From the IMG/VR virus record IMGVR_UViG_2721755676_000001: DNA of 64,000 bases, one strand, 5' to 3'. The DNA comes from a virus. Lineage: Duplodnaviria > Heunggongvirae > Uroviricota > Caudoviricetes. The translations under genes were made by a program, and so were the position numbers. Shown here in pieces: positions 19,815 through 52,881 of this stretch. The notes beneath the pieces are model-generated. The model was not told the origin of the DNA and searched no databases. It worked only from the letters and a program-made list of their open reading frames with translations. The number at the start of each line of letters is the position of its first letter. Position 1 is the first letter of the stretch.

Positions 19815-19869
19815 CCTGCTTCTGTATATATAAATAATAAGTAACTTATTAAATATATACGGAAGCAGG
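19815..19869. repeat. 55-bp near-perfect palindrome (copy A)
   Basis: CCTGCTTCTGTATATATAAATAATAAGT|AACTTATTAAATATATACGGAAGCAGG; second copy at 52829-52881; outer inverted repeat GGTCTGG/CCAGACC. Confidence 0.7.
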
Positions 19870-19905
19870 CTTCGTAAGACATGCCAGACCTAATTAAACA
19901 CCCCA

Positions 19906-19947
19906 GAAAACAAGTTGGTTAGCAGATGCAGTAAACAAGTTGTTTTA
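19906..19947 (+). promoter_or_regulatory. two class I operator palindromes upstream of terS
   Basis: AGAAAACAAGTTGGTT and TAAACAAGTTGTTTTA, followed by hairpin AGAGCGC..GCGCTCT and SD. Confidence 0.45.
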
Positions 19948-19985
19948 GAGCGCATGGACGCGCTCTGTGTGTTTTAGAGGGATCT

Positions 19986-20618
19986 ATGACGGTCGAAAAA
20001 GACGAGGTAAAAACTCGCCTGACACCAGCGGAGTGGGCCGAAGCTGAAGCCAAATGGACGTCAGGCGAATATACACTCTCAAAGCTGGAGGAAGAGTACG
20101 GCATTCGTCGTGAAACACTCTCCAGACATTTCAAAAAGCGAGGATTAGAGAAAGGCGCGGACTCTGTTGGGAAGATGGTTCGTGAGTCTCTTAAATCTGA
20201 CGCAGAGCTTCGCGCTAAAGCCCGTGCGGAAAAGATAGAAGAACGTCGTACACGTTATGACGGCTGGGCGTATGCGTTGGGGCAGATGGTGATGGTCGAA
20301 GTCACTACGGCCAAACGTGAGGGTAAGCCTTTAGGGGCGATTGAGGATTCTCTCAAGAGCTTACAGAGAGCCAGTAATACCCTTGCAAAATGCTTTGAAG
20401 TTTCGTCCAAAGCATTGGGCATGGATCATGCGGAAAATGACGAGGAAGAAATTCCGAACCTGGTATTTGGTGAGCTTACGCCTTCCCAGGTGGCGAAATT
20501 ACGTCAGGAAGACGACGAGCCTGAAATCATCGATGACGAATTGCTTGAGACGTTGGAAGAAGAAGCTCTAAGCGAATTTGATGCGACAGATGATGGAAGT
20601 GAAGGGGAGGACGAATAA
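19986..20618 (+). CDS. terminase small subunit (putative)
   Basis: 210 aa, helical N-terminus, very acidic C-terminus, directly upstream of and overlapping the large-subunit gene. Confidence 0.6.
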   Translation: MTVEKDEVKTRLTPAEWAEAEAKWTSGEYTLSKLEEEYGIRRETLSRHFKKRGLEKGADSVGKMVRESLKSDAELRAKARAEKIEERRTRYDGWAYALGQMVMVEVTTAKREGKPLGAIEDSLKSLQRASNTLAKCFEVSSKALGMDHAENDEEEIPNLVFGELTPSQVAKLRQEDDEPEIIDDELLETLEEEALSEFDATDDGSEGEDE

Positions 20619-21874
20619 TGGCAATCCCGTCCTCGCTCAGTCTTGTGCAACTGCATTCTGGACAGATGAAAGTCTTCCAGTCTCCGCATCGATTTAAAGT
20701 TGTTTGTGCTGGTCGACGCTGGGGAAAATCCCGGTTGTCGATCTCCACTATTATTCGTGCGGCGGCAAAGGAAAAAAAGCAAAGGGTCTGGTATGTCGCT
20801 CCTACTTACCAGATGGCTCGCCAGATTTTGTGGGACGATCTACAGGAAGTTCTGCCTCGTAAGTGGGTTAGGAAAAAGAACGACACCACGATGACAATCG
20901 TGTTGAAGAACGGTTCGGAGATCGCCCTCAAAGGTGCTGATAAGCCTGACACTCTGCGCGGCGTAGCGTTGCATTTTGTAGTGCTTGATGAATTTCAGGA
21001 TATGAAGGCTGACACCTGGTACAAGGTGTTACGACCTACTCTTTCATCGACACGCGGCGGTGCACTGATCATTGGTACGCCAAAAGGCTTCTCGGAATTT
21101 CACAAACTGTGGACTATAGGCCAGAACGTAGAGCTGCAAAGAAAGGGACAGTGGAAGAGCTGGCAGTTTGTAACTGCCGATTCTCCGTTTGTGCCTACGG
21201 CGGAAATTGAAGCTGCTAAGAACGATATGGACCCGAAATCGTTCGCTCAGGAGTACCTGGCGAGCTTTGAGAACATGTCCGGGCGCGTTTACTACCCGTT
21301 CGATCGTAACGTGCATGTAAAACTGCTTCAGTTCAACCCTCGGTTGCCTATATGGGTAGGGCAGGACTTCAACATTGACCCGATGTCTTCCGTAATTTTG
21401 CAACCTCAGCCAAATGGTGAGCTATGGGCAATTGATGAATTGGTGCTCTTTTCCTCTAACACGGCAGAAGTTTGTGATGAGCTTGAGAGACGCTTCTGGC
21501 GCTGGAAATCACAGGTAACGGTATTTCCAGATCCGGCAGGTGCTTATCGCCAACATGCTCGTGGGGAGTCTGACGTAGACATATTCAAAGAGAAGGGATT
21601 CTTACGTGTCGATTATTCGAAAAAGCACCCGCCAATTGCGGATCGTGTTAATGCTGTTAACCGAATGCTGATGTCCGCATCTGGAGATATCCGGCTGTAT
21701 ATCGATCCGAAGTGCAAGCATTTGATTGATTCACTGGAAAAAGTCATCTACAAGCCTGGAACACGAGATATGGATAAGACAGGTGGCATTGAGCATAGTG
21801 CAGACGCATTGGGCTATCCAGTACATCGTAGGTATCCAGTCAAAAACCGTGTTATTCTTGGTGGTTCTCGATAG
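20618..21874 (+). CDS. terminase large subunit
   Basis: Walker A CAGRRWGKS, Walker B VVLDEFQD, C-terminal nuclease-like acidic residues. Confidence 0.85.
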   Translation: MAIPSSLSLVQLHSGQMKVFQSPHRFKVVCAGRRWGKSRLSISTIIRAAAKEKKQRVWYVAPTYQMARQILWDDLQEVLPRKWVRKKNDTTMTIVLKNGSEIALKGADKPDTLRGVALHFVVLDEFQDMKADTWYKVLRPTLSSTRGGALIIGTPKGFSEFHKLWTIGQNVELQRKGQWKSWQFVTADSPFVPTAEIEAAKNDMDPKSFAQEYLASFENMSGRVYYPFDRNVHVKLLQFNPRLPIWVGQDFNIDPMSSVILQPQPNGELWAIDELVLFSSNTAEVCDELERRFWRWKSQVTVFPDPAGAYRQHARGESDVDIFKEKGFLRVDYSKKHPPIADRVNAVNRMLMSASGDIRLYIDPKCKHLIDSLEKVIYKPGTRDMDKTGGIEHSADALGYPVHRRYPVKNRVILGGSR

Positions 21875-21900
21875 GTAAGTAATTATCTAAGGTTATTCAA

Positions 21901-23475
21901 ATGGAATTGAACGACAAACAAATTAAGGATCTGGTGGCGCGACGCCACCCGGAATACGAAAAGAAAAAAGAACATTGGGACTTCCTCGCCAGCACTTACG
22001 CTGGCGGGCGTGGTTGGTTTACAGACAATATCTTTCGTTACTTTAAAGAGGGAGATCAGGAGTTTAAGGAGCGTGTTGAGCGTGCCTATCGCTTCAACCA
22101 CACTCGTGAGGTGGTAAACCTCATCAACAAATATCTCTTTAAAGAAGACATTCATAGAAATATCGAAGAGGCACCAGAGCAGATCCGCAATTTCTGGAAA
22201 CGTGCGACTCGCCAGAATGCCTCTATTGACTCATTTATGGCCGCCATTGATTTGCAGTCGTCTATTTACGGTCGCATATGGGTTGTTGTCGATAGCACGA
22301 TGAGTGGTGATGTTGAGTCAGTAGCTGACGAGAAAAAGAAAGATGCTCGCGCCTACGCCTACTGGATTTCACCTCAGCAAATGCTGGATGTGGCATGGGA
22401 CGACGACGGGAATATGTTATGGGCGTTAATTGTGGAAGTCGCTCGCGATGACGCAGACCCTTTTACTTCTACAGGTCAGGAATACCAACGTTATCGTCTG
22501 TGGACACAAAACGAGTGGTATCTGTTCCGTGAGGAAGTGAAGAAGGGGGCTGGTGGAGCAGGTCGTCGTCAGGCAAAAGTTATTTTAGAGGACAGCGGTG
22601 AGCATAATCTCGGCGTAGTTCCTGTGTTTCCTGTTGATTGTATTGGAGAAAGTGAATCACCGTATTTCAGCCCATCGTTGATCGATGATATCGCTTATCT
22701 TGATCGTGCGGTTGCAAACTATCTGTCAAACCTTGATGCCATTATTCAGGATCAGACATTTAGCCAGTTGGCTATACCGGTACAGTCGCTTTTACCTGGT
22801 GATGAAAACCACACTAAAGTGCTTGAAATGGGCACAAAGCGAGTCTTCACCTACGATTCTGAAGGTGGAAACCAGCCGTTTTATCTGTCACCAGACCCGA
22901 AACAAGCTCAGATGATCATCACTACGATTAAGACGGTGATTAACGAAATCTACCATTCAGTTGGTGTAGCTGGTGAGCGAACGAAGCAGGACAACGCACA
23001 GGGAATCGATAATTCATCTGGTGCCGCAAAAATGTATGACTTCCAGCGTGTAAATAGCTTGCTTGTCACAAAAGCAGAGCGTCTGGAAAGGGCTGAACGC
23101 CAAATCATGCTACTGGTTGCGAAATGGATGGGGGTAGATCTGGACGAAGACCACTCTTTAATTGCGTATCCAGAAAGTTTCGATATTCGTGGCCTTACTG
23201 ATGAATTTTCTGTTGCCGAGAAACTGTCATTACTTCAGGCACCGGACTCTGTACGTCGTCACCAGATGGAAATGCTTATTGAGAAGATTTTCCCGAACAT
23301 TACTGAGGCGATGAAAAAGGAATTTGATAAAGATCTCTTGAATTTTCCTCCAAAAAATGATCTAAATACCCTTGAAAATAAGTCAGTACTTACTTATGAT
23401 CGTGGTGCAGCCCAAGAAAGCGGGCAAGATCAACCCCGAGGGAATGGGGACTCATCTACTCAAGAGAACGAGTGA
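21901..23475 (+). CDS. portal protein
   Basis: 524 aa, position after terminase, acidic C-terminus; class II element and SD upstream. Confidence 0.7.
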   Translation: MELNDKQIKDLVARRHPEYEKKKEHWDFLASTYAGGRGWFTDNIFRYFKEGDQEFKERVERAYRFNHTREVVNLINKYLFKEDIHRNIEEAPEQIRNFWKRATRQNASIDSFMAAIDLQSSIYGRIWVVVDSTMSGDVESVADEKKKDARAYAYWISPQQMLDVAWDDDGNMLWALIVEVARDDADPFTSTGQEYQRYRLWTQNEWYLFREEVKKGAGGAGRRQAKVILEDSGEHNLGVVPVFPVDCIGESESPYFSPSLIDDIAYLDRAVANYLSNLDAIIQDQTFSQLAIPVQSLLPGDENHTKVLEMGTKRVFTYDSEGGNQPFYLSPDPKQAQMIITTIKTVINEIYHSVGVAGERTKQDNAQGIDNSSGAAKMYDFQRVNSLLVTKAERLERAERQIMLLVAKWMGVDLDEDHSLIAYPESFDIRGLTDEFSVAEKLSLLQAPDSVRRHQMEMLIEKIFPNITEAMKKEFDKDLLNFPPKNDLNTLENKSVLTYDRGAAQESGQDQPRGNGDSSTQENE

Positions 23476-23496
23476 TAAGTAACAAAAGGAATTTTT

Positions 23497-24384
23497 ATGA
23501 ATCTGTGGCAAATGCTTTTGGCCCGTCGTGGTCTGATGGATGTCGCTGAAGCGCATGAGCGTGGAGGCGCTGGCGGTGTAGCTGCTGATAATGAGCAGAG
23601 CACACAAGATCCTGACAAACAGGGTGAACAAAAAGAGCAGCCGAAGGGCGATGACGAATACGCTGGGATGACTCAGGAAGAGTTACTGGCCGAACTTCGT
23701 AAAACCAAGAAAGCTGGTGCTGAACTGCTGAAGGAGAACATGAAGCGCAAAGAGAAAGAGCGCACATTGGCCGATCAGCTTGCTCAGTACGGTGATATCG
23801 ACCCGGCGCGTGCTCGCCAGCTTTTAGAAGCTGAACAGGCCGCAGAAAATGCACGTCGTGAGGCGGAGCAAGCTGAACTGGAGCGTCGTGGTGAGTTCGA
23901 TGCTGTTAAAAAACAGATGATCGAAGCACACCAGGCAGAGCTGGCACAGCGTGACGAACGTTATACAGCACTGGAAAGTGAAAACGCATCACTGAAATCT
24001 CAATTAGTCGAGATGACCGTGGGCGCTTCCTTCAGTAACTCTCTCTTCCTACGTGACAAAGTTCTGATGACCCCGGCAAAAGCCCGCGTGATCTACGGTT
24101 CTCATTTTGAAGTGGGTGAAGACGGTAGCGTAGTGGGTTATGACAAACCGGCAGGTCATAAAGAACGAGCTGTTCTGGTTGACGGTGAAGGTAAGCCGTT
24201 GCCGTTTGAATCCGCGATTGAACGCATTGTGCGGGCAGATCCGGAAGCTGACGCATTGATGCGTAGCGAAGCCAAGCAGGGTGTAGGCTCACATTCCAAA
24301 TCGACCTACACAATATCCCAACCGAAGAACAAGTCGACTATGGATAAGTTGGCCTCCGGTCTGGGGAAAATTGGACTTAAGTAA
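23497..24384 (+). CDS. head scaffolding protein (putative)
   Basis: Glu/Ala/Arg-rich coiled-coil protein between portal and capsid genes. Confidence 0.5.
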   Translation: MNLWQMLLARRGLMDVAEAHERGGAGGVAADNEQSTQDPDKQGEQKEQPKGDDEYAGMTQEELLAELRKTKKAGAELLKENMKRKEKERTLADQLAQYGDIDPARARQLLEAEQAAENARREAEQAELERRGEFDAVKKQMIEAHQAELAQRDERYTALESENASLKSQLVEMTVGASFSNSLFLRDKVLMTPAKARVIYGSHFEVGEDGSVVGYDKPAGHKERAVLVDGEGKPLPFESAIERIVRADPEADALMRSEAKQGVGSHSKSTYTISQPKNKSTMDKLASGLGKIGLK

Positions 24385-24409
24385 CATCTAAATCAAAGGG
24401 AATTGATAG

Positions 24410-25285
24410 ATGCCATTACTGCGTGAAGAAGCTGAAAAGCTGTCTAACAACGAACTTGAACAGGGTGTGATCGAAACTATCATCGATCGCGATGACCTGT
24501 TTGCCATCCTGCCTTTTATGAAAATTAATTCAAAGGCATATCTGTACAACCGTGAAAAAACGCTGAGCGAAGCTACTTTCATTGATGTGAACGACACCAT
24601 CACCGAAGGTGCAGCAACCTTCGAAGAGAAAGTTGCGAAGCTGCGCATTCTGGCTGGCGACGTTGACGTCGACAAATTCCTGGCTACCACTATGGCTGAT
24701 ACCAACAACCAGCTGGCTATCCAGGTTCGTCAGAAAGTCAAAGGTCTGGCTCGTGCCTTCCGTCGCAATCTGATTGTTGGCGACTCCACCACTAACAACA
24801 AAGCCTTCGACGGTATTCCGAAGCTGATGCATGACGATCAGAAGATCGACATCTCCGGCGCATCCATGACTTTCTCTATGTTCGACGAACTGGTCGACGC
24901 AGTTAAAGATCTGGGCGCAGACTGCATCATGATGCGTTCTGAGCATCTTCGCGCATATCGTGCGCTGCTGCGAACTGTAAACGTAGGCCCGTCCGAAATC
25001 ATGATGGAAAACTTCGGTCGACCAATGCTGTGCCATAACGGCGTTCCGTTTATCGTAAACGACTTCATCCCGACCGATGCTGGCAAAGCAAGCATCTACT
25101 GCCTGCATCTGTCAGAAGAGAACGGCGTTACTGGTCTGTATGGCGGCGACAACGCAGGTATCGTTGTTGAAAACATTGGTACTGTACAGAACAAAGACGC
25201 AGTACGTACCCGTGTGAAGTGGTACTGCTCTCTGGCGAATAAGCACGATAAGGCTATCGCTGCACTGACCAATGTAAAAATTTAA
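24410..25285 (+). CDS. major capsid protein
   Basis: 291 aa, position and composition typical of HK97-fold capsid proteins. Confidence 0.75.
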   Translation: MPLLREEAEKLSNNELEQGVIETIIDRDDLFAILPFMKINSKAYLYNREKTLSEATFIDVNDTITEGAATFEEKVAKLRILAGDVDVDKFLATTMADTNNQLAIQVRQKVKGLARAFRRNLIVGDSTTNNKAFDGIPKLMHDDQKIDISGASMTFSMFDELVDAVKDLGADCIMMRSEHLRAYRALLRTVNVGPSEIMMENFGRPMLCHNGVPFIVNDFIPTDAGKASIYCLHLSEENGVTGLYGGDNAGIVVENIGTVQNKDAVRTRVKWYCSLANKHDKAIAALTNVKI

Positions 25286-25319
25286 TCAGTGTGGTAGATA
25301 AGTAATTATCTATGTTTAA

Positions 25320-25345: not shown

Positions 25346-25358
25346 GTAGGAGCAAGAA

Positions 25359-26279
25359 ATGCCAGAACAAAAGATGAAGATTACGGAAGAGGCATTTTCG
25401 GATTTTACGGGGCATATGTGCCGCGCCGGATTTACCAATTCTATCTCCGATGAACCTTTAACCGAGCGGCAACAAAGTCAGCTATCTGCTTGTTTGCAGG
25501 CGGTTCCCTTCTCCCAATCCGTAAACATAACTCCGGCTTCACCATCAGTTTTGGTTGGGAAAACTGTTCAACTTAGTGCAGGTATTAGTATGGGTAAGAG
25601 TGCCAGTTCATTCACCTGGAAGTCAGCCAATGATCAAATTGCAACCGTTAACGGCACTGGATTAGTAACTGGCGTAGCCCCAGGCAAAGTAAAAATTACT
25701 GCAACTGATCAGGAAACCCAGCTTTCCGCTTCAGTGGAAGTCACCGTAAATCCGGTAGCCGTTCAATCCGTAACGGTAACGCCAGAATCAACGTCTGTTG
25801 AGAAAGGGAAATCAGTCAGTCTGAAAGCGAATGTTCAGCCGTCAAATGCGACGAATAAGGCTGTTACCTGGTCTTCCAAAAATGAAGATAAGGCAACGGT
25901 AGACCAGAGCGGGAACGTAACTGGTGTAGAAGTTGGCACTGCGACGATTGAGATCGTTTCCCAAGATGGTAGCAAAAAGGCAACTGCAACGGTGGAAGTA
26001 ACTGCGCCTGTTGTGGCTGTTACAGGCGTCGAAATCGACCCAAATAGCACAACCGTTGAGGCAAACAAAACTGTTCAGCTGACCGCAAATGTCGAGCCGG
26101 CAGGAGCCACAAATAAAACCGTTACTTGGGAATCCAAAAATACCGAGTTTGCAACGGTGGACAGCGAAACCGGTGTTGTAACTGGTGTTGCGGCTGGCAC
26201 TGCCACAATCGAGGTTACTACCCAAGATGGTAGCCACAAAGCGACAGCGACCGTAGAGGTCACTGCCGCACAGGAATAA
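25359..26279 (+). CDS. Ig-like (Big_2-type) domain protein, probable head decoration
   Basis: Three repeats of the pattern VTV.P.S..V..GK.V.L.A.V.P..ATNK.VTW.S...ATVD..G.VTGV..G.ATI. Confidence 0.65.
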   Translation: MPEQKMKITEEAFSDFTGHMCRAGFTNSISDEPLTERQQSQLSACLQAVPFSQSVNITPASPSVLVGKTVQLSAGISMGKSASSFTWKSANDQIATVNGTGLVTGVAPGKVKITATDQETQLSASVEVTVNPVAVQSVTVTPESTSVEKGKSVSLKANVQPSNATNKAVTWSSKNEDKATVDQSGNVTGVEVGTATIEIVSQDGSKKATATVEVTAPVVAVTGVEIDPNSTTVEANKTVQLTANVEPAGATNKTVTWESKNTEFATVDSETGVVTGVAAGTATIEVTTQDGSHKATATVEVTAAQE

Positions 26280-35356: not shown

Positions 35357-35438
35357 GCATCTGGATAAGTAAGTACTAATTTACTATCATTGTGGCGCTG
35401 ACAGGATGTTAGCGCCTACTTATTTCAAGGATGAAACA

Positions 35439-42343: not shown

Positions 42344-45300
42344 ATGTGGTACAGGGAAGGTACTATCACATTTACACAGGGCAGCAATACTCTGGTTGGG
42401 GCAGGGACAGCCTGGAACGTAACAGCTAATGGTGTGTTGCCGGGGATGATCGTCATTGGCCCCGACAATAAGCTGTATGAGATCAAGCGCGTAACCAGTG
42501 ATACGAACATTGTTCTCTCAGAACCTTATACCGGCGAAACTCAGTCTGAAGTTCCGTGCCGAATCATTACGACCTATGAAGGCGACTTAACACAGTTTAG
42601 CGCGCGCTTTACTGCGCTAATGTCGCGTATGTCGGCTGATTCCAAGTCCATACGCAGTTGGTTGACTGCGCTGGATGAGGTGACAATCGAGCGTGAAGAC
42701 GGTACAGAAGTGACCGTTAAGCCGCTAATGCAGATCGCCAACGAGCACAACGAAAACGTTGAGTGGTATAAAAATAACACTGACGCGATTGATGCTGCTG
42801 GCGACAAAGCTCGTGAGGCGGCGGCCAGTGCTGCCGCAGCAGCAAAAAGCGCCAATGCCGCTGGAGAAAAAGCCTCTCAAGCGTCTCAAAGTGCATCCGC
42901 TGCGGCATCCTCACAAAGTGCCGCAAGTGCGAGTGCAACTGCTGCGAAAAAATCTGAAACGAATGCTGCAGCGTCACAAAAATCTGCAGCCACTTCTGCA
43001 TCCACCGCGACCACGAAGGCGTCAGAAGCTGCCACCTCAGCCCGGGATGCGGCGGCCTCAAAAGAGGCAGCGAAATCATCAGAAACGAACGCATCCTCAA
43101 GCGCCAGTAGTGCCGCTTCCTCGGCAACGGCGGCAGGAAATTCCGCGAAGGCGGCAAAAACGTCCGAGACGAACGCCAGGTCTTCTGAAACGGCAGCGGG
43201 ACAGAGCGCCTCAGCTGCGGCAGGCTCAAAAACAGCGGCTGCGTCGTCTGCCAGTGCCGCGTCAACAAGTGCCGGGCAGGCCTCAGCCAGTGCCACCGCC
43301 GCCGGAAAATCGGCAGAAAGTGCCGCATCGTCTGCTTCAACAGCCACAACGAAGGCTGGCGAAGCCACTGAACAGGCCAGCGCAGCAGCGAGGTCTGCTT
43401 CCGCAGCGAAGACATCCGAAACGAACGCGAAAGCGTCGGAAACCAGCGCAGAATCCTCAAAAACGGCTGCCGCATCGTCCGCCAGTTCGGCGGCGTCATC
43501 GGCATCATCGGCGTCTGCTTCAAAAGATGAGGCGACCAGACAGGCGTCAGCAGCGAAGGGCAGCGCCACGACGGCATCCACGAAAGCAACAGAGGCGGCA
43601 GGCAGTGCGACGGCAGCATCTCAGAGCAAAACTGCTGCTGAATCCGCTGCGACTCGTGCGGAAGCTGCTGCTGATCGTGCTGAAGAGATTGCCGGTGCAG
43701 TTGCGATGGAAGACGCAAGCCTTACAACTAAAGGTGTTGTGAAACTTAGCAGTGCTGTCGACAGCACCAGTGAATCGCTGGCCGCAACGCCAAAAGCAGT
43801 TAAAGCAGCCAATGACAATGCGAATAGCAGGGTGCCATCTAACCGAAAAGTTAACGGTAAAGCACTGACTGCGGATATCAAATTAACGCCGAAAGATATT
43901 GGTACTTTAAATTCAGTAACGATGTCTTTCTCTGGCGGGGCAGGGTGGTTCAAACTGGCTACGGTTACCATGCCACAAGCGAGTTCCATCGTTTACATCG
44001 CATTGATTGGTGGCGCTGGTTACAACGTCGGCTCCCCACATCAGGCAGGCATTTCAGAACTGGTTCTACGAGCAGGCAATGGAAACCCCAAAGGGATTAC
44101 AGGTGCTTTGTGGAAGCGTACAGCTGTCGGATTAACGAATTTCGCCTGGATCAACACATCCGGCGATACATATGATATTTACGTTGAGATTGGCAATTAT
44201 GCGACTCGTGTAAATATCCATTGGGATTGTACTGCAAATGCGACAGTTTCTATTTATACCTCGCCAACATATTCAGCGAGTAAGCCTTCCAGCGTTACCG
44301 ATGGTGTTGTTTATACGATGTATAGCACACATCAGAAACCGACGCCGTTAGATATTGGAGCACTGCCAACAACCGGAGGAACAGTTTCAGGTCCGTTGTC
44401 TGTTACAGGTGGATTAACTGGTTCATTGAATGGTAATGCAAGTACAGCCACGAAATTGCAGACGGCAAGATCTATCGGTGGAGTTGTTTTCGACGGTTCT
44501 GCAAATATTAACCTTCCAGGTGTAAACACTACGGGTAATCAGAACACCACTGGTAATGCTGCAACTGCTACAAAACTTCAGACTGCAAGAAAAATATCCG
44601 GTGTTCCATTTGATGGTTCTACTGATATCACTTTAACCGCTGCGCATGTTGCCGCTTTCGCAAGAAGGGCAACAGGGTCATATGCGGATGCTGATGGTGG
44701 CGTGCCGTGGAATGCTGAATCTGGTGCTTACAATGTAACTAGAACAGGCGACAGTTATATTCTTGCCAACTTTTATACCGGTGTAGGTAGTTGCCGGACC
44801 CTGCAGATGAAGGCGCATTACAGAAATGGAGGTCTGTTCTACCGTTCCTCAAGAGATGGCTATGGTTTTGAAAGTGGTTGGGAGCAGGTTTACACGACTG
44901 GATTTATGCCTCAGCCGGCTGATATAAACGCGCCAACCGCTGCCGCTGGATGGTTAAATAGTGGTAACGGAACGGCATTTACGACTGCTCAATTTATAAC
45001 TTGGCTAAATAATCAGGGGGCATTTACAAACAAACATTGGATCGCACGGTGCTCATGGGCTTACGCCAACAATAATTATATAGACGACACTGGTTGCGGT
45101 AGGATCGATCTATCTGGTTCCGTGATTGAGGTGTTTAGTAATAAGGCAACAAGCCACTACACTATTCGTGTTACAACGACAACAACATCGGGTCATGGTG
45201 GTGTTAACAATGCGGAATTTATTTATGTGTACAATGGAAGTGATTATGCACCAGGCTGGCGTCGTTCTTATAACACTAGAAACAAACCAACAGCTTCTGA

Positions 45301-46642
45301 TGTAGGAGCATTATCGCTTTCTGGAGGAGCGTTAACTGGCGGATTAACTGCTGCTGGCGAGATTATTTCAAAATCGGCGAATGGTCTGCGCATTGCCTAC
45401 GGAAACTACGGATTCTTTATCCGAAACGATGGTTCAAGCACATACTTCATGTTGACCGATTCGGGTAACAGCCTGGGAACCTATAATAGTTTAAGGCCGC
45501 TTATCATTAACAATGCCAATGGTGCTGTTAGGATCGGTAATGGACTCAATGTTACTGGCGGCATCAATGGTAGTTTGAACGGTAATGCTTCAACAGCTAC
45601 GAAGTTGCAAACAGCGAGAAACATCAATGGTGTTAAGTTTGATGGTTCAGGCGATATCAACATTAATACATTGGTATCTCGTGGCCGAGTTACGGCGTTA
45701 AGCGGCTCTACTCAAGGCACTGCTGGCATTCAAATGTATGAGGCGTACAACAATAGCTACCCGACCACGTATGGCAACGTATTGCACATGAAAGGTGCGA
45801 GTGCTGCTGGTGAGGGCGAGTTGCTTATTGGCTGGAGTGGTACGAGCGGTGCACATGCGCCAGTTTTCATTCGCTCACGAAGAGATAACACAGGTGCAGC
45901 ATGGTCAGCGTGGGCGCAGGTATATACCGCTAAGGATTCAATCCCTGGTGTGAATACAACTGGTAATCAGAACACTACTGGTAATGCCGCAACCGCCACA
46001 AAATTGCAGACAGCAAGGAAAATTGCTGGTGTGGCGTTTGATGGCTCTGCCGATATAACTTTGACTGCGGCTAACCTTAATGCTTACACGAAAACAGAGG
46101 TAGCAAACCTTCTAAGCTCCTATGCAAGCAGATCATCACTGACAGGCTATAGTGGCAACCTGGATATTGTTGCTGAAACACTGGTTGTCAAATCAGGCGG
46201 TAGTGGAGGGTTTGCTATATGGGATATTGGCACAACTACTAGCGGTGCCAATATGTACATTGATCCAAACCCAGGTATCAATACAGTTTGGCGTTCAACG
46301 TCTTCAAGGCGCTATAAAAAGGATATTGAAACATTACAAGATCGATATGCTGATGAACTTTTGTCATTAAGACCTGTTTGGTATCGTTCAATTTGTCGAG
46401 GTGACCGAAAGGATTGGGGGTATTACGGCCTTATTGCTGAAGAGGTTGGTGAGATTGCCCCGCAATATGTCCATTGGCGTGAACCAACAAATAATGATTC
46501 TCCAGAAGATATTTCCTCAAATGGTATGGTCGCTGAAGGAGTGATGTATGAGCGTTTGGTTGTACCACTCATTCATCATATTCAGCAATTGACCAAAAGG
46601 GTTGAGGAGCTTGAAACGAAGTTAAATTCACCTAAAGAATAA
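42344..46642 (+). CDS. side tail fibre protein with C-terminal intramolecular-chaperone (peptidase S74-like) domain
   Basis: Ala/Ser-rich low-complexity region, three GNASTATKLQTAR..GV.FDGS fibre repeats, C-terminal DIVAE...RRYKKDIE...GLIAEEV segment. Confidence 0.8.
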   Translation: MWYREGTITFTQGSNTLVGAGTAWNVTANGVLPGMIVIGPDNKLYEIKRVTSDTNIVLSEPYTGETQSEVPCRIITTYEGDLTQFSARFTALMSRMSADSKSIRSWLTALDEVTIEREDGTEVTVKPLMQIANEHNENVEWYKNNTDAIDAAGDKAREAAASAAAAAKSANAAGEKASQASQSASAAASSQSAASASATAAKKSETNAAASQKSAATSASTATTKASEAATSARDAAASKEAAKSSETNASSSASSAASSATAAGNSAKAAKTSETNARSSETAAGQSASAAAGSKTAAASSASAASTSAGQASASATAAGKSAESAASSASTATTKAGEATEQASAAARSASAAKTSETNAKASETSAESSKTAAASSASSAASSASSASASKDEATRQASAAKGSATTASTKATEAAGSATAASQSKTAAESAATRAEAAADRAEEIAGAVAMEDASLTTKGVVKLSSAVDSTSESLAATPKAVKAANDNANSRVPSNRKVNGKALTADIKLTPKDIGTLNSVTMSFSGGAGWFKLATVTMPQASSIVYIALIGGAGYNVGSPHQAGISELVLRAGNGNPKGITGALWKRTAVGLTNFAWINTSGDTYDIYVEIGNYATRVNIHWDCTANATVSIYTSPTYSASKPSSVTDGVVYTMYSTHQKPTPLDIGALPTTGGTVSGPLSVTGGLTGSLNGNASTATKLQTARSIGGVVFDGSANINLPGVNTTGNQNTTGNAATATKLQTARKISGVPFDGSTDITLTAAHVAAFARRATGSYADADGGVPWNAESGAYNVTRTGDSYILANFYTGVGSCRTLQMKAHYRNGGLFYRSSRDGYGFESGWEQVYTTGFMPQPADINAPTAAAGWLNSGNGTAFTTAQFITWLNNQGAFTNKHWIARCSWAYANNNYIDDTGCGRIDLSGSVIEVFSNKATSHYTIRVTTTTTSGHGGVNNAEFIYVYNGSDYAPGWRRSYNTRNKPTASDVGALSLSGGALTGGLTAAGEIISKSANGLRIAYGNYGFFIRNDGSSTYFMLTDSGNSLGTYNSLRPLIINNANGAVRIGNGLNVTGGINGSLNGNASTATKLQTARNINGVKFDGSGDININTLVSRGRVTALSGSTQGTAGIQMYEAYNNSYPTTYGNVLHMKGASAAGEGELLIGWSGTSGAHAPVFIRSRRDNTGAAWSAWAQVYTAKDSIPGVNTTGNQNTTGNAATATKLQTARKIAGVAFDGSADITLTAANLNAYTKTEVANLLSSYASRSSLTGYSGNLDIVAETLVVKSGGSGGFAIWDIGTTTSGANMYIDPNPGINTVWRSTSSRRYKKDIETLQDRYADELLSLRPVWYRSICRGDRKDWGYYGLIAEEVGEIAPQYVHWREPTNNDSPEDISSNGMVAEGVMYERLVVPLIHHIQQLTKRVEELETKLNSPKE

Positions 46643-47565: not shown

Positions 47566-47572
47566 TGAGTAA

Positions 47573-47806
47573 ATGATGAAAAGATTATTTCTAACAATAG
47601 CTGTTGTTCTCTCTCTTACTGGCTGCCAGAAATTGCCGACACCTATATGTTATGGTGAAGCTATCATTGGTGGACAGGAGACAGTCATACCCATATATGC
47701 TGTTAAAAAAGTGAACGACTATACCTTATACAAAGCGGGTAGCATCTATAACTGGCGATGGGTTGGAGTAGGTGCTTTCTCATCAATCGGTTGCAATGCT
47801 GAATGA
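47573..47806 (+). CDS. small lipoprotein (77 aa), candidate superinfection-exclusion factor
   Basis: Signal peptide with lipobox LTGC, directly downstream of the fibre genes. Confidence 0.6.
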   Translation: MMKRLFLTIAVVLSLTGCQKLPTPICYGEAIIGGQETVIPIYAVKKVNDYTLYKAGSIYNWRWVGVGAFSSIGCNAE

Positions 47807-47875
47807 TAGGTAAGTACACACCTACAACAAAAGGGTGAAATGTGATATAAATCCGCCATCCCGATTTGACTTTTC

Positions 47876-48211
47876 ATGGAGGAAAACATGTCGAACGAGA
47901 TGGCGGGCGTTACAACAGAGCAAGTTGAGCGTATTGCCGCGATCGTTGCTCGGGAGGTTGTTGGCAAATTAGGTAAAGAGCTACGTGAAGAAATTGGCCA
48001 GGAGGTCAATGATCAGCTGAAAACCTACTTTGGTGATATGACCCCGGCGCAACATAGTATTCAACACTCCAATCTGGACAAACTCCTTAACCGGTTAGAT
48101 TCCATCTCAAGTGGGTTCTTTGGCGGCATTGTTTCTAAAATAACGTCGTTCATTATTACCGCACTGCTTTTGGGGTTAGCCGCGTATGGCGTAAAAAGTG
48201 GACTGCAATAA
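47876..48211 (+). CDS. membrane protein with C-terminal TM segment (possible holin)
   Basis: One hydrophobic helix (ITSFIITALLLGLAAYGV) at the C-terminus; immediately precedes the lysin gene. Confidence 0.4.
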   Translation: MEENMSNEMAGVTTEQVERIAAIVAREVVGKLGKELREEIGQEVNDQLKTYFGDMTPAQHSIQHSNLDKLLNRLDSISSGFFGGIVSKITSFIITALLLGLAAYGVKSGLQ

Positions 48212-48224
48212 CAGGAGATCAAGG

Positions 48225-48917
48225 ATGAAGACTCCGAGAGGCATTCGTAATAATAACCCCGGTAATCTTGATAAAGGATCACCGTGGCAAGGTCTGGTTG
48301 CGAATCCAGACGAACCGCGCTTTTGCACGTTTAAAGACCCTGTTTGGGGGATTCGTGCGCTGGCGGTGACTCTAATTACCTACCACGATAAACGTCGCGC
48401 AAAAGACGGCTCAAGTATCGATACCATTCGTGAAGTTATTGAACGCTGGGCACCGCCGAATGAAAACAATACTGACGCCTACATTAATGAGGTGTCTAAA
48501 GCCGTTGGTGTAACCGCAGACATGATCATCGATCTGCATGATTACGACATCCTTCGACCTTTGGTTGAGGCAATCATTCGCCACGAGAATGGCCGAGGCC
48601 CGCTAAAAACGCTGAACACCTGGTATGCGGCAGAAGTTATTGAGGAAGGTCTGCGTCGAGCTGGCGTTGTTAAGCCGGTGAAAACCGTGAAGGCTGTTCC
48701 TGTAACTAAAGAAACCGCAGGCGCAACTGTTACAGCAGGTATTGGTCTGGCGCAGCTGGCCGATGTTATGCCGCAGGTTTCCGCTGCTATGGATAAAGCA
48801 CAAGGTCATATCTCTAGCGGGGATACAGTACGCATCATCTTCGGTATTGCCACTATTGTTGTGGCAGGATTCATTGCCTGGTCGCAGGTAAGAAAACACC
48901 AGAAAGGGATGGTCTAA
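48225..48917 (+). CDS. putative endolysin with C-terminal membrane anchor
   Basis: ATG at 48225 with SD CAGGAG; position in lysis cassette; N-terminal GIRNNNPGNL-containing domain, C-terminal TM (IIFGIATIVVAGFIAW). Enzymatic class not determined. Confidence 0.45.
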   Translation: MKTPRGIRNNNPGNLDKGSPWQGLVANPDEPRFCTFKDPVWGIRALAVTLITYHDKRRAKDGSSIDTIREVIERWAPPNENNTDAYINEVSKAVGVTADMIIDLHDYDILRPLVEAIIRHENGRGPLKTLNTWYAAEVIEEGLRRAGVVKPVKTVKAVPVTKETAGATVTAGIGLAQLADVMPQVSAAMDKAQGHISSGDTVRIIFGIATIVVAGFIAWSQVRKHQKGMV

Positions 48918-48918
48918 T

Positions 48919-49170
48919 ATGCTAGGCAGCCTGATGACAAAGCTAAAAGTTGCTTTGATTACGCTGGCTGCCGTTCTTTTCGTTCTGGTCGGCGCTTACA
49001 CGATGGGCGGAAATGCGGCGCGACGAGCAATGGAAGAGAAGGCAAAACAGGAAGACAGGAAACGACTTCAAAGCACAGTGGATGTCAAAAATGAAACGGT
49101 TAATGAAGTGCGGCAAAAAGATGCCTCTGGTGTTCATCGCGAGCTGTTTGATAAATGGGTGCGTGATTAA
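48919..49170 (+). CDS. i-spanin (Rz-like)
   Basis: N-terminal TM helix then charged coiled-coil periplasmic region; follows the lysin. Confidence 0.55.
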   Translation: MLGSLMTKLKVALITLAAVLFVLVGAYTMGGNAARRAMEEKAKQEDRKRLQSTVDVKNETVNEVRQKDASGVHRELFDKWVRD

Positions 49171-49318
49171 GACGCAGGCTCCAGGCGTGCTATTCTGCGA
49201 TGCTGCAAATCCTATCTATGTGAGTAGAGAGGATTTTATGACTGAGGAAACGGAGCGACAGTTGCTTATCCACAATACGATAGGTGAAAGGCTGTGTGAG
49301 TGGGGGCACCTGAACTGA
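49091..49318 (+). CDS. o-spanin (Rz1-like lipoprotein), overlapping +1 frame
   Basis: Start inside the i-spanin gene; signal peptide with lipobox FIASC. Confidence 0.5.
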   Translation: MKRLMKCGKKMPLVFIASCLINGCVIKTQAPGVLFCDAANPIYVSREDFMTEETERQLLIHNTIGERLCEWGHLN

Positions 49319-49542
49319 GTCGATGATTGATGAGTGGTCTCAGTTTACCTTTTATCCTAAAGATGGCATCTTCACTCATATACACGCCTGTTCACTCAAG
49401 CTCATGTTGAATCATTTAGTAATTTGATGTAGATTTATTAGGCATCCACGTAAGTGGGCACATACAGGCTACGCATCCTCGTAGCCTTCAACCCCGAGAG
49501 GGGTGCCGCAATGACACTTGTGTTAACGGCTAAGGTGGATAT

Positions 49543-49962
49543 ATGCTAAATTATCATGACAATACGCGTTCTATGCAGACGATCCGCACCAATACTGCGG
49601 TCATCGACAGCTTTCCTATGCGTATTCACAACAGTGAAGACGCAGTAGAAGTGCGACGTATGTTGTGCCGTGAATCAGCTAACCGCCAGCACTTCATCGT
49701 CACTTTTAAGAGCGATGTGGCGCGTGCCGAAAAGATCTCTAATTCTACGTCACTGGTTAAACCGTTGGCCGAGGTTGTCGCTAACGGTAAACGAACCTCT
49801 TTTGTTTTAGATGTTGCTGAACAATATCCTGACTTGAAGTGTTTAGATCGTGATATTTCTTCACGAATCAAACAAGTTGTAGAGTCTTTTATGAAGAAAT
49901 TCTGTAAAATCGATGATATGGAACCATCAACGGCACAGAATACTTCATGGCACCATCTCTAA
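49543..49962 (+). CDS. hypothetical protein (139 aa)
   Basis: ORF after a 220-bp hairpin-rich intergenic region. Confidence 0.45.
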   Translation: MLNYHDNTRSMQTIRTNTAVIDSFPMRIHNSEDAVEVRRMLCRESANRQHFIVTFKSDVARAEKISNSTSLVKPLAEVVANGKRTSFVLDVAEQYPDLKCLDRDISSRIKQVVESFMKKFCKIDDMEPSTAQNTSWHHL

Positions 49963-50720
49963 TTGGTCAGGCGAACAGATTAATCCCTGAAATAGAAGAC
50001 TACAGCAAGGTCTTGTCTGAAATGCCGAGAGCGACGAGAATTATCGCTCTCGGTGAGTTCTATTTTATCTCCCGAGGTTTCGATCTAATTCGATTTACCG
50101 AATACGAGCTTGTTGATTCGGCCTATGAACGCTGTATTGTTGGCGAGTGTCTTGAGTCATGTGATCCTGATTACCAAGAGCAGGAAGTTAAGCGACTCAA
50201 ACGTGCTGGTTACACACCTCTTGAGATAGGAGCAGAAATTGAATCCTACAAGTTGCATGTGGGGCAGCCAGTCCAAACAGTCTTCCGCGTGGCCTACTGC
50301 GAGTTTCCAATCAAGGATAAATCTGGAGTAAAAGTCAGCGCCAAGCAGATTAGAGGGGTTTTTACTCATGCTGATTATATGGGATTAGGCATCGCAAGTT
50401 TTGCTTACCTTTATCTCGTAGATAAGTATCAGTACTTGGTTTGCGATACGTTACAGACGGTAAAAGGCGCAACTCTTTGGGCTGTGAGTATGCGCAAACA
50501 TGGACTGGTCGAAATTTACGATACGAAGAACGAAAATTTTATAGAGGAATTGGGTGAGGATGCCTGTGGCGTAAGTGGTTTTATTCCGTGGGATATCGGT
50601 AAGTCTGACGGAGGCCAGATGCGAAGACGTGAAGAGTGGGGGACTAATAAAATCAATCTCACCCCAGGTGCTTGTACTCATATAGTGAACATTCTGACTA
50701 AACGATCTATGAATCAATAA
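49947..50720 (+). CDS. hypothetical protein (257 aa)
   Basis: Overlaps the preceding gene end; followed by a strong terminator. Confidence 0.45.
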   Translation: MAPSLIGQANRLIPEIEDYSKVLSEMPRATRIIALGEFYFISRGFDLIRFTEYELVDSAYERCIVGECLESCDPDYQEQEVKRLKRAGYTPLEIGAEIESYKLHVGQPVQTVFRVAYCEFPIKDKSGVKVSAKQIRGVFTHADYMGLGIASFAYLYLVDKYQYLVCDTLQTVKGATLWAVSMRKHGLVEIYDTKNENFIEELGEDACGVSGFIPWDIGKSDGGQMRRREEWGTNKINLTPGACTHIVNILTKRSMNQ

Positions 50721-50741
50721 ACCCGCTACGGCGGGTTTTTT
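50721..50741 (+). terminator. intrinsic terminator
   Basis: CCCGC tacg GCGGG followed by T6. Confidence 0.7.
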
Positions 50742-50810
50742 GTTATTAAGCCCCCCCTATGTACCTATCATTAAACCTTTACACCGCAGCCGTAGGCATT
50801 TAGGCTATAT

Positions 50811-50834
50811 CACATATAAGAAAACAAGTTGTTT
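50811..50834 (+). promoter_or_regulatory. class I operator upstream of parA (CATATAAGAAAACAAGTTGTTT)
   Basis: Same TATAAGAAAACAA junction as at 5025-5046. Confidence 0.45.
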
Positions 50835-50869
50835 CAGACGATAATTATATACGCAAAGGGAACTCTCCA

Positions 50870-51538
50870 ATGACCAAGATCTTTGTGGTTGGCGGCACAA
50901 AGGGCGGGCCTGGCAAATCCACCGTTGCCCAGCAAATTGCCGTTTGCCTGAAAGTCAAAAAGAAGAAGAAGGTTTATATTACCGATATAGATATTCAGCG
51001 CACGACAACGAGCTGGTGTGAAGACCGTCGACAGAACGAAGACCTTGAGCTGATTCCTTTTGCATACGTTCAGGATGACATCATTAAGCACCTAAAATCG
51101 CTTCAGGGTAGAGCTGAGTTTGTAGTGGTAGATGCTGGTGGCTTCGACTCCGAAATTCAGCGACAAGCGATGCTGATGGCTGACGTTATCATTATCCCGC
51201 TGCGTCCTAAGCGTCGTGATTTGAAATCTTTACGTGACATCGATCCTATTATCGACAATGTTCGCAATGTAAACGATAAAGTGAAGGTCCGCGCGGTCAT
51301 GAACCAGTGCCCGGCTTTGCCATCACAAGTGTCTCGCATTCTGGCGGCTAAAGAGATTGTTGAGACGTTTGGAATCGAGTCTGCGCCAGTCAATCTATAT
51401 AACCGCAACGTCTATGATGATGCGGAAGAGTCTGGTCGTTCTATCTTTGAAATGACCGGTAGCGAGCGCGACAAAAAGGCGGAAGCCGAGTTTGAAGAAT
51501 TTGTAGATTATCTGTTGAGTCTGGAGGAAGAAGAATAA
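50870..51538 (+). CDS. ParA-family partition ATPase (small, Type Ib-like)
   Basis: Deviant Walker A GGTKGGPGKST; 222 aa with no N-terminal HTH; acidic tail. Confidence 0.85.
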   Translation: MTKIFVVGGTKGGPGKSTVAQQIAVCLKVKKKKKVYITDIDIQRTTTSWCEDRRQNEDLELIPFAYVQDDIIKHLKSLQGRAEFVVVDAGGFDSEIQRQAMLMADVIIIPLRPKRRDLKSLRDIDPIIDNVRNVNDKVKVRAVMNQCPALPSQVSRILAAKEIVETFGIESAPVNLYNRNVYDDAEESGRSIFEMTGSERDKKAEAEFEEFVDYLLSLEEEE

Positions 51539-51897
51539 TGTCCATGAAAATGGGTGACCTAGCAAAGCGCAAAGAGCCTGATGCACCGGCTAAGAACACA
51601 ACTCCTTTGCGCCAACCAGTCAGACCACAGGGACGCCCGACTCGTGGCAAAGAGAAAATTAAAAGCCGCACAATGTCACTGGAGGACGAATACTTCGAAC
51701 TGCTGGAGATGATGAAGTTCATCCCTCGCTTCGAGAAGTTCACTCGTTCTGACGTGATTCGAGCAGCCATTTTCCATCTGGCAGAGAAGTCACCGCAGGA
51801 AATCGAGGACATCGTGAAATTGAATGAGGCGATCACCGCTGCCGATGTCACGATGCGTACCGATGAAATCAAACGAGAGTTGATGAAGAAAGGTTAA
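51538..51897 (+). CDS. putative ribbon-helix-helix centromere-binding partner (ParG-like)
   Basis: ATGA overlap with parA; basic disordered N-terminus and RHH-like KSRTMSLEDEYFELLEMM segment. Confidence 0.55.
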   Translation: MSMKMGDLAKRKEPDAPAKNTTPLRQPVRPQGRPTRGKEKIKSRTMSLEDEYFELLEMMKFIPRFEKFTRSDVIRAAIFHLAEKSPQEIEDIVKLNEAITAADVTMRTDEIKRELMKKG

Positions 51898-51902
51898 AAA
51901 TC

Positions 51903-51933
51903 ATGCATTGGCGCGTACATTGCGCCAATGCAT
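51903..51933 (-). terminator. terminator hairpin (12-bp perfect stem) between convergent genes
   Basis: ATGCATTGGCGC gtacatt GCGCCAATGCAT; T-run only on the minus-strand side. Confidence 0.6.
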
Positions 51934-51949
51934 AACTACAGTGTCAGCT

Positions 51950-52717
51950 TTATGCCGCGCTAACACTATGTTCAGTCCTAACCACCCCAACCTTCACAAA
52001 AGGGCTACCGTAGCTTGGTGGCTTCTTGATTAATTTGCCTACATACAGTTTTCTAATATGCTCATCGGCTATTCTGCCAACAAATTCATAACGTTTTGTG
52101 TCGGGGCCAAGAGCTATATCCCTTGTAAAGTACTGCTGAGAACCGGCTTTGACCCAGCATTCAATCTGATAAACTTCCATTATCAGCCCACCATATGTAG
52201 CGTAGGCATATTTGAGATTCTCGTCTCTTGGAACCTTTGCCCATACGCCACGCGTAGCTTCATATAATGCCAGAGCGGACATTCCTGACTTGTAGGTGCT
52301 GTTTAGCAGGAAGGCAAGACCGGCGTGCTCAGGAGCAATTTCAGTTTCCTCTTGCAGCACTAAGTGATGGTAGGCGTCCAGTGATATTCTGCCCATCATG
52401 GAACCACTTCCTCGTACCTTATTCGTAAGCTCTCCGACCCCCATAAGGTCGATGCATGTCGCCTCAACAAGTTTGGCTGTGGTTTCATCCATACCATGAC
52501 GAAGTATATCTATGCCTAATTTTTTATTAGCCAAAAGTTCTTTGATCCGCATGGATTTGGGAGAGTCATCGGGATACTTGATGTGATCGAGACAACGAGT
52601 CGATTTGCCTTTTCCTATGTAAAACGGTCTTTTCATCTTGTCTTCTGTATCATAGAGACAGTAAACATAGTATTTAGCCTTATCCAATGATCTCGCGTAT
52701 ACCGATAAATCGTCCAT
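51950..52717 (-). CDS. GIY-YIG nuclease-domain protein (255 aa)
   Basis: N-terminal YYVYCLYD...RPFYIGKGK motif; C-terminal ~150 aa of unknown type. Confidence 0.6.
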   Translation of the reverse strand: MDDLSVYARSLDKAKYYVYCLYDTEDKMKRPFYIGKGKSTRCLDHIKYPDDSPKSMRIKELLANKKLGIDILRHGMDETTAKLVEATCIDLMGVGELTNKVRGSGSMMGRISLDAYHHLVLQEETEIAPEHAGLAFLLNSTYKSGMSALALYEATRGVWAKVPRDENLKYAYATYGGLIMEVYQIECWVKAGSQQYFTRDIALGPDTKRYEFVGRIADEHIRKLYVGKLIKKPPSYGSPFVKVGVVRTEHSVSAA

Positions 52718-52828
52718 TATTGCATCTCTTTGCTACTGACTAATGCGTTCTATTTTACACATAAGTTTTTAATCAATTTAACAGGCTCAAAGTGTAGAGC
52801 TTCTGGGCGTCTAAGACGACAAGTTATG

Positions 52829-52881
52829 CCTGCTTCTGTATATAAATAATAAGTAACTTATTAAATATATACGGAAGCAGG
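52829..52881. repeat. 53-bp near-perfect palindrome (copy B)
   Basis: Same sequence as 19815-19869 minus 2 bp; lies in the divergent region before the replication module. Confidence 0.7.

Follow-up and report, generated by a model that had tools for sequence, protein, structure and literature searches.

Within a 64,000-nt stretch of viral DNA (hereafter the window; IMG/VR record IMGVR_UViG_2721755676_000001, Caudoviricetes), a palindrome of about 55 bp occurs twice on the + strand, at 19815–19869 (copy A, 55 nt) and at 52829–52881 (copy B, 53 nt). Megablast with positions 19000–24000 and blastn with 52400–53400 revealed that the window is part of an SSU5-like phage-plasmid, of which it makes up about 60%. 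Identity reaches 99.5% with Escherichia phage CMS-2020a (CP053388.1, a circular record of 107,648 bp), 96% with PhiR41_1, about 82% with Salmonella phage SSU5 and about 79% with relatives from Klebsiella. Transcription of the ~108-kb genome runs almost wholly in one direction, and nearly all genes around both copies lie on the + strand. With identities also drawn from the annotations of SSU5, Cyrano and Klebsiella, the 5′ side of copy A was found to encode two ParB_N proteins, an ABC-type ATPase, a 296-aa open reading frame (ORF) and an 88-aa ORF that ends at 19790; on its 3′ side, after 117 nt, terS starts at 19986 and is followed by terL. Copy B is preceded by the genes of ParA (222 aa), a 119-aa ribbon-helix-helix (RHH) protein and a minus-strand GIY-YIG protein (gene start 52717), and followed by a 249-aa ORF (52989), a DnaB-like helicase and a primase. 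A first-pass annotation, made from the letters alone, had placed the first palindrome between a ParB-like operon and terS, and the second between the GIY-YIG gene and the replication operon; these neighbours are correct.

Both palindromes are present at exactly the coordinates given in that annotation and occur well beyond chance. Their 16-nt arm, CCTGCTTCTGTATATA, is found four times in the window with at most three mismatches (two arms in each of two copies) against 0.29 expected, and four matches were reached in none of 100 shuffles. A single TA unit is the sole difference between the copies. Copy A folds into a 17-bp lower stem with one U·G pair, a 3×1 internal loop, a 7-bp upper stem and a 3-nt loop, and copy B into a 16-bp lower stem with one U·G pair, a 2×2 internal loop, a 7-bp upper stem and a 3-nt loop. 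The lower stem (16–17 bp) is formed by CCUGCUUCUGUAUAUA(U)/(A)UAUAUACGGAAGCAGG, and the upper one by AAUAAGU/ACUUAUU. Of the 27-bp arms with one G–T mismatch described earlier, the single G–T pair stands, but the arms are not unbroken over 27 bp, as the internal loop separates 16–17 bp from 7 bp. Single-strand folding gave −30 to −34 kcal/mol as RNA (z = −7.3 to −7.8) and −15 to −16.5 kcal/mol as DNA (z = −9 to −9.5), which bears out the notion of very stable hairpins, or cruciform-capable palindromes, at module boundaries. Moreover, an RNAfold sliding scan placed the copies among the longest single hairpins of the CMS-2020a and SSU5 genomes. A covariance model derived from 33 palindrome variants recognized only two sites in the window, at 84.5 bits (copy A) and 78.5 bits (copy B) on the + strand, with 65.3 and 68.1 bits, respectively, on the minus strand; no further match in the window fell below E = 0.8.

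The palindrome is only the core of an imperfect inverted repeat of about 100 nt, TCTGG...palindrome...CCAGA, which spans 19793–19890 (GGTCTGG...CCAGACC) and 52801–52904 (TTCTGG...CCAGAA). Alignment of the oriented copies plus flanks yielded a plan common to these two sites and to a third site, C, beyond the window: (G)TCTGGG(AG), 12–20 nt, the palindrome, 10–25 nt and (CT)CCCAGA(C), with a T-tract after the palindrome at B and C. At copy A, the left flank (19793–19814, + strand) consists of the outer-stem arm GGTCTGG(G) at 19793–19800 and the middle segment GCTTATTTAAAGA; in the right flank (19870–19890, +), CTTCGTAAGAC pairs with this middle segment and is followed by the arm CCAGACC at 19884–19890, with no U-tract. 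At copy B, the arm TTCTGG(G) at 52801–52807 and a spacer form the left flank (52801–52828, +), and the right flank (52882–52904, +) comprises the T-tract TCTTTT at 52882–52887 directly 3′ of the stem, AAAAGACACCA and the arm CCAGAA at 52899–52904. The outer arm begins 2 nt past a TAA stop (19788–19790) at copy A, 6 nt past the upstream stop at site C of SSU5 and directly past the gp37 stop at site B of SSU5; window copy B is preceded by a variable slot with a minus-strand gene and not directly by a stop codon. Given the whole extended region, RNAfold predicted one long hairpin at all sites in all lineages.

The first-pass annotation had counted two copies and suggested a check of copy number and position in related elements. 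Both copies are indeed in the window, but the whole genome holds three: CMS-2020a, the closest complete genome, carries exactly three copies, 30–45 kb apart, the third about 6.3 kb left of the window start in its coordinates. We named the sites A (before terS), B (before the DnaB replication block) and C (after a Dam-like methylase gene). In SSU5, one copy runs across the record ends before terS, another (33458) lies ahead of gp38/DnaB and the last (78303) behind the gp88 methyltransferase gene. Scanning IMG/VR with one arm yielded 120 loci, 82 of which have the full palindrome, or 97 with relaxed arm matching. Mapping of their flanks placed every full copy (82/82, and 97/97 under relaxed matching) at the orthologous junction A, B or C, intergenic between co-directional genes; the other single-arm loci either have a mutated version of the second arm or match by chance in phages of unrelated kinds. 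The element is present in 797 PLSDB plasmids (Klebsiella 313, Escherichia 236, Enterobacter 91, Yersinia 62, Salmonella 49, Citrobacter 25, and others), and 797 is also the count of plasmids whose TerL is at least 80% identical to that of the window. The element thus spans E. coli, Klebsiella, Salmonella, Enterobacter, Yersinia, Citrobacter and Cronobacter, at the same three junctions and mostly in the same polarity; the Yersinia pestis and Salmonella carriers we take to be pMT1- and pHCM2-type replicons. Among complete E. coli genomes, 259 of 5426 contain it, and 923 of its 925 places there are on plasmids of about 100–240 kb (most about 100–120 kb). It is a lineage-specific element of enterobacterial SSU5-like replicons and not a host repeat. 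No feature is annotated at the element in any record checked, including the 925 places in complete E. coli genomes, and it is not described in full-text searches and the main phage-plasmid papers, subscription-journal papers on pMT1, pHCM2 and phage D6 having been outside reach.

In a diverged Klebsiella plasmid (NZ_CP055187.1, TerL 90%), site A retains a degenerate clamp around a 25-nt loop and has gained a long T-rich tail. In a contig from a metagenome-assembled genome (TerL 90%), the CCTGCTTCC/GGAAGCAGG clamp persists and encloses another AT-rich interior. Morganella and Xenorhabdus relatives (82%) have different AT-rich hairpins with other GC clamps before terS, the clamp motif occurring once per genome, and relatives at 60–65% have a GC inverted repeat enclosing about 70 nt of AT-rich DNA. 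RNAfold sliding scan and comparison found no equivalent three-copy hairpin family in Acinetobacter pABTJ2. A Photobacterium contig (L130, 1–28) starts in an AT-rich palindromic stretch before terS; the weak resemblance at its start is not significant. Judged from these sequences, the triplicated 55-nt palindrome as such belongs to the enterobacterial clade.

Two features of the alignment bear on the form in which the element acts. First, the asymmetric centre (AAATAMTAAGT...) has a constant polarity relative to transcription at A, B and C, the exceptions being two inverted cores (L064 and L083). The covariance model, built on the sense strand, scores the + strand higher by 10–19 bits. Mismatches at sites A and B are compatible with wobble pairing on the sense versus the antisense strand at 17:2, although these events are not independent, and at B and C the inserted T-tract sits asymmetrically, on the 3′ side. 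Second, the stem segments between outer arm and core vary by lineage and remain complementary (AGAG/CTCT, TTTATAG/CTATGAAA, CTTATT/AATAAG). In one lineage, GGTCTGG/CCAGACC is swapped for AACTG/CAGTT, which changes two outer-stem pairs on both sides; within the core, pair 9 occurs as C-G, U-G and U-A, and pairs 7 and 16 show one double change each. These stem extensions and both-side, compensatory changes argue that the pairing itself is under selection.

Taken together, polarity, wobble, T-tract, conservation and the pattern in relatives lean toward an orientation-dependent role at the transcript level. We therefore tentatively propose, with somewhat less than even confidence, that the palindromes are cis-acting RNA hairpins which insulate three co-directional gene modules and are ordinary in kind, if unusual in form. 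From the sequence we infer the RNA as the active form as well as its cleavage by RNase III, termination and insulation. The three copies lie at the 3′ ends of three big blocks, namely the accessory/ParB-like block, the structural–lysis–partition block (ParA) and the replication–nucleotide block. In this putative model, each copy, once transcribed, would fold into a ~24-bp hairpin right behind the last stop codon and would block 3′ exonucleases. Transcription would be ended or weakened where a U-tract follows, that is, at copy B and at copy C beyond the window. E. coli RNase III cleaves duplexes of at least ~20 bp, with the intercistronic sites of T7 and lambda sib as precedents, and the hairpin would be long and regular enough to be a substrate of the host enzyme. 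The fold matches in silico what is typical of such substrates, ~20 or more bp of near-continuous double-stranded RNA, often with an internal loop: here 16–17 bp, the loop and 7 bp, which the outer stems could extend to ~35–40 pairs. The outer arms TCTGG...CCAGA could pair in read-through RNA and thereby lengthen the duplex, as at lambda tI/sib, and the gene orientation and conserved polarity are compatible with a sense-strand RNase III site. A cut there would separate the message of the upstream block from the block that follows. The maintenance genes of the plasmid state sit directly upstream of lytic genes on the same strand; the net effect of insulation would be to keep these plasmid-state genes (ParA/RHH and the ParB-like operon) from reading into the lytic replication and packaging genes.

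Several observations weigh against this proposal. The independent mutational events and the covarying pairs are few, and our collection method demanded one exact arm, which introduces an ascertainment bias. At site C, sense- and antisense-compatible mismatches stand at 8:8, counts that include one spurious pattern match and slightly inflated non-Watson–Crick categories, and the SSU5-type site C folds better as antisense. A d'Aubenton-Carafa-type discriminant, whose scores are approximate given the modern energies used, gave site means of d = −21 (A) and −24 (C), equal on both strands, and −4.5 at B. The arms are 93%–95% identical against ~79% for the surrounding coding DNA and flanks, beyond what pairing alone seems to require. 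Finally, in NZ_CP055187.1, site B is degenerate with a separate canonical terminator before it, and site C keeps the right arm without the left one, a pattern that a sequence motif, or decay, would explain better than a hairpin that is indispensable. The arm may alternatively be read by a sequence-specific factor.

That the palindromes are plain intrinsic terminators, possibly bidirectional ones as the first-pass annotation had suggested, and nothing more, we consider improbable. They do form stem-loops on the transcribed strand, intergenic and just past stop codons; the base of the stem is GC-rich, and B and C carry a TCTTTT(T)/CTTTTT tail. Window copy B comes near the threshold in sense only (d = −0.7, against −35.5 in antisense), but window copy A scores −23.0, and a canonical terminator of the same genome, a short GC hairpin with a T-run at 50719–50738, reaches +18.5. 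As for the tails, nT is 3.64 for TCTTTTAAAAG at copy B and 2.49 for CTTCGTAAGAC at copy A, with site means of 2.75 (A), 3.92 (B) and 3.03 (C); the canonical terminator at 50719 has 4.45. In most lineages copy A lacks a U-tract, scores at A and C are about −21 to −24 and equally poor in antisense, and a consensus promoter/terminator scan of the window called neither copy. The genome makes use of short canonical terminators elsewhere, such as that at 50719–50738, and termination alone would need neither near-identity at three sites nor a nested inverted repeat of 100 nt. The earlier suggestion is thus supported only in part, by the T-rich tail and borderline sense score of copy B; the hairpin does not qualify as a bidirectional terminator, nor, at A and C, as a canonical intrinsic one.

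Conventional terminator-like structures were also observed in the window. Between copy A and terS (19910–19977), two copies of a AAACAAGTTG motif precede a short hairpin with a T-run; the hairpin TAGAGCGCATGGACGCGCTCTG at 19946–19967 is followed by TGTGTTTTAG and ends just before the terS ribosome-binding site. Three relatives (L132, L134 and L136; TerL 58%–65%) have a canonical GC hairpin plus T7–8 terminator at the same pre-terS spot, which suggests a conserved leader terminator and antitermination-type control of the late operon. Among minus-strand genes at 10778–10811 and 11274–11307, two 88%-identical units of GC hairpin plus T-run (AAAGCGCCCATAGTGGGCGCT...), 496 bp apart, make up a second, conventional repeated terminator-like family.

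The strong arm conservation raises an alternative at the DNA level, in which the element, as duplex or cruciform, is a recognition site bound by a phage-plasmid protein and serves as a dispersed centromere like that of N15, or as an operator or insulator. The first-pass annotation had named a dispersed centromere as one of four roles without choosing between them. We regard a DNA-level site as unlikely. Candidate binders, judged by their genes, would be the RHH protein beside ParA, the 88-aa winged-helix-like protein, the ParB_N proteins and TerS. Conservation is higher in the arms than in the flanks and higher in the right arm than in the left, and the right arm persists alone at site C of NZ_CP055187.1. 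Copies are homogenized within a genome, A and B being identical over 55 nt in CMS-2020a; they differ in SSU5, and gene conversion between A and B is evident in the E. coli lineage. TATATA-rich centres, as found here, favour cruciform extrusion. Copy A follows the operon with two ParB_N proteins, and copy B lies downstream of ParA (222 aa) and RHH (119 aa), directly so in L010 and L030. The latter two genes (50870–51897) encode a small ParA with MipZ/CbiA/ParA matches and a protein with the RHH-like segment KSRTMSLEDEY...SDVIRAAI, and are predicted to be a type Ib ParA/ParG-like partition pair.

Several points speak against a DNA site. Centromere-binding RHH proteins of type Ib as a rule recognize short iterated repeats, which mostly lie upstream of parA. 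The element does not resemble known parS or sopC: the chromosomal parS consensus (with at most three mismatches) was not found, and inspection of the 55 nt revealed no P1 boxA/boxB or sopC-like motif. A distance of 46 bp separates its GC-rich half-sites, unusual for a site bound by a dimer, and conserved polarity, placement after stop codons and complementary lineage-specific stem extensions would be unexpected of a plain duplex site. Comparison of the RHH, 88-aa and TerS proteins with the state of the palindrome was uninformative for a centromere role; the RHH protein, for instance, is 53% identical in the NZ_CP055187.1 lineage with its degenerate palindrome. A bolder variant, by analogy with N15, in which the three co-oriented, cruciform-prone palindromes, bound by the RHH, a ParB_N or the 88-aa protein, would act as dispersed centromere or insulator sites that both partition the 108-kb episome and wall off the lytic modules while the plasmid is maintained, seems quite unlikely to us. 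If it held, it would establish an N15-like link between segregation and lysis–lysogeny control and a new type of site in ~800 enterobacterial plasmids, pMT1- and pHCM2-type replicons included.

Two further DNA-level roles put forward in the first-pass annotation, a packaging initiation site (pac/cos) and a lytic replication origin or origin-associated element, find the least room in our results and are highly improbable. Copy A lies 117 nt 5′ of terS, and the SSU5 GenBank record is linearized inside palindrome A (L003 3262–3299 and L001 1–18 are the record ends). However, the same sequence occurs at two other junctions without a packaging link, and the break in the SSU5 record looks like an assembly break. 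One IMG/VR contig (L056) ends inside a copy and others end within ~200 nt of the copies at A and B, which points to assembly artefacts; PhiR41_1 and CMS-2020a are deposited as circles whose starting points are arbitrary. Short-read assemblies appear prone to break at the element. As for an origin, copy B precedes replication genes and the core of the element is AT-rich and easily melted, but GC skew is flat across both sites, with no inflection, and the sequence contains no DnaA boxes, iterons or GATC clusters.

The surroundings of copy B suggested yet another explanation, in which the element is a recombination linker or mobile regulatory cassette that offers homology patches for module exchange between co-infecting relatives and for gene conversion, a role proposed for T4 PeSL cassettes and for boundary sequences of lambdoid phages. 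The left edge of copy B is exactly where homology to several relatives begins, and the slot to the left of this copy is hypervariable, holding the GIY-YIG gene in the window, gp35–37 in SSU5, no gene in L010 and L030 and another gene in NZ_CP055187.1. In the window, the slot is filled by a free-standing (LEM-3-like) endonuclease gene at 51950–52717 on the minus strand. In two contigs (L072 and L112), a left flank of the window type meets a right flank of the SSU5 type at B, gene conversion links A and B, and two cores are inverted relative to their flanks. Nevertheless, the nearest relative switches across the palindrome in 8 of 58 cases against 39 of 235 at neighbouring 1-kb boundaries, which by this crude test is no excess; an identity-difference breakpoint metric was significant, but is confounded by the divergence pattern of the two references themselves. 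Moreover, the variable slot exists only at site B, and linkage of this kind would be a consequence rather than a selected function, leaving the hairpin architecture unaccounted for. We thus hold this explanation to be decidedly improbable.

It is very unlikely, in our judgement, that the element has no selected function and is a neutral or selfish palindromic repeat whose copies gene conversion keeps alike. The decay of copies in NZ_CP055187.1, the absence from Acinetobacter relatives and the small number of covarying pairs would suit such a repeat. On the other hand, all 797 PLSDB plasmids with TerL at or above 80% appear to carry the element, at the same three positions and mostly in the same polarity across the enterobacterial taxa named above, and it is conserved better than the neighbouring coding DNA. 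Furthermore, long palindromes are normally counter-selected in E. coli (SbcCD).

Known repeat and RNA families were considered separately. Rfam at the gathering score detected only three tRNAs in the window, and a permissive search gave only sub-threshold matches to long hairpins, mostly eukaryotic miRNA precursor families, at 13–21 bits where 46–211 are needed. Telomere resolution sites of the telRL type were rejected on the grounds of three copies rather than one, circular closest records and the lack of a protelomerase in the SSU5 annotation. Integron attC sites were rejected, given outer arms GTCTGGG/CCCAGAC rather than GTTRRRY and no Rfam match, and the host families REP/BIME, ERIC and MITE, given the plasmid location of 923 of the 925 places in complete E. 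coli genomes.

Apart from the palindromes, the window contains several other repeats. Many intergenic regions share a 13-bp palindromic motif, (AG)AAAACAANTTGTTT, frequently preceded by conserved sequence, at 1358–1389, 4965–5050 (two, inverted), 7512–7546, 7996–8030, 9664–9693, 19930–19950, 50804–50838 and 53732–53766. This motif is a candidate for a dispersed operator or promoter, and a phage regulator could have its real target here. Just 5′ of many start codons lies a motif resembling ATAAGTA-N5-6-TACTTAT, to which the palindrome centre (AATAAGTAACTTATT) is similar; it was found at 158–185, 16576–16599, 23378–23397, 35365–35384, 47802–47824, 52967–52985, 56400–56423, 59755–59782 and 62242–62264. 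Acinetobacter relatives have an analogous recurring motif, TAAGCGCTTA. At 60139–60260 and 61087–61164, two pairs of 20-bp inverted repeats with CACARCGTTGAG, 95% complementary and with 82 and 38 nt between the arms, flank a cluster of three tRNAs (60527–60770) just upstream of a 298-aa minus-strand ORF, and may be origin or operator structures. In-frame repeats within structural genes occur at 44432–46094, as four 79-nt units of a 1432-aa tail-fibre ORF, and at 25917–26266, as two 89-nt units of an Ig-domain protein.

SSU5-like phage-plasmids are common in clinical Enterobacteriaceae, and some Klebsiella carriers bear resistance genes. An element at three module junctions offers an easily mutated handle on how ~70 kb of lytic genes are silenced beside expressed maintenance genes. 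In practical terms, it accounts for recurrent assembly breaks, marks the slot for cargo insertion and provides the signature CCTGCTTCYGTATATA...TATACGGAAGCAGG for typing the SSU5-like group. Should it be only a terminator or processing hairpin, the result would be an ordinary one. All in all, we consider the element previously undescribed, widespread and probably ordinary regulatory punctuation.

Among known systems, the transcript-level hairpins proposed here are reminiscent of the RNase III sites of T7 (R0.3...R18.5) and of lambda tI/sib, which are likewise long, sequence-related hairpins with an internal loop, dispersed at block boundaries and sense-oriented in a co-directional genome. Lambda sib also offers a parallel for the nesting, in which outer arms that would pair only in read-through RNA enclose an inner hairpin, followed by a U-tract at B and C. 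In contrast to the T7 and lambda sites, there is no sequence homology, only three copies exist, the lower stem is a perfect, AT-rich 16–17 bp clamped by CCTGCTTCC/GGAAGCAGG, the role of RNase III is a predicted one, and the host element is a temperate phage-plasmid; given this temperate host, the presumed role would be to insulate lysogenic from lytic expression. Intrinsic terminators share with the element a stem-loop just past the stop codon, a GC-rich base and, after copy B, the TCTTTT tract. Unlike them, its stem is about three times the usual length and mostly A–T, copy A is without a U-tract, the discriminant is negative and the structure is nested and present in triplicate.

The promoter-early stem-loops (PeSL) of T4-type phages are mobile regulatory cassettes, as Arbiol et al. 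reportedly described in 2010. The element resembles them in being a stem-loop repeated at gene boundaries, with a hyperplastic slot left of copy B and copies that exchange sequence, but it occupies three fixed positions rather than many and shows no excess of mosaic breakpoints. Phage N15 is said, from work by Ravin and Lane in 1999 and by Grigoriev and Lobocka in 2001, to have four sopC-like inverted-repeat sites that serve as dispersed centromeres. It too is a phage-plasmid with identical palindromes scattered among phage genes, one of them beside the partition genes; its sites, however, are short (~16 bp) SopB boxes, whereas here the palindromes are 55 nt, AT-rich, polar and equipped with stem extensions, in a replicon with ParA and an RHH protein. 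Compared with telRL of N15, PY54 and phiKO2, also a ~56-bp palindrome in enterobacterial phage-plasmids, the present element resides in SSU5-like prophages that are circular plasmids, SSU5 itself having no annotated protelomerase; it occurs in three copies rather than one and is unrelated in sequence.

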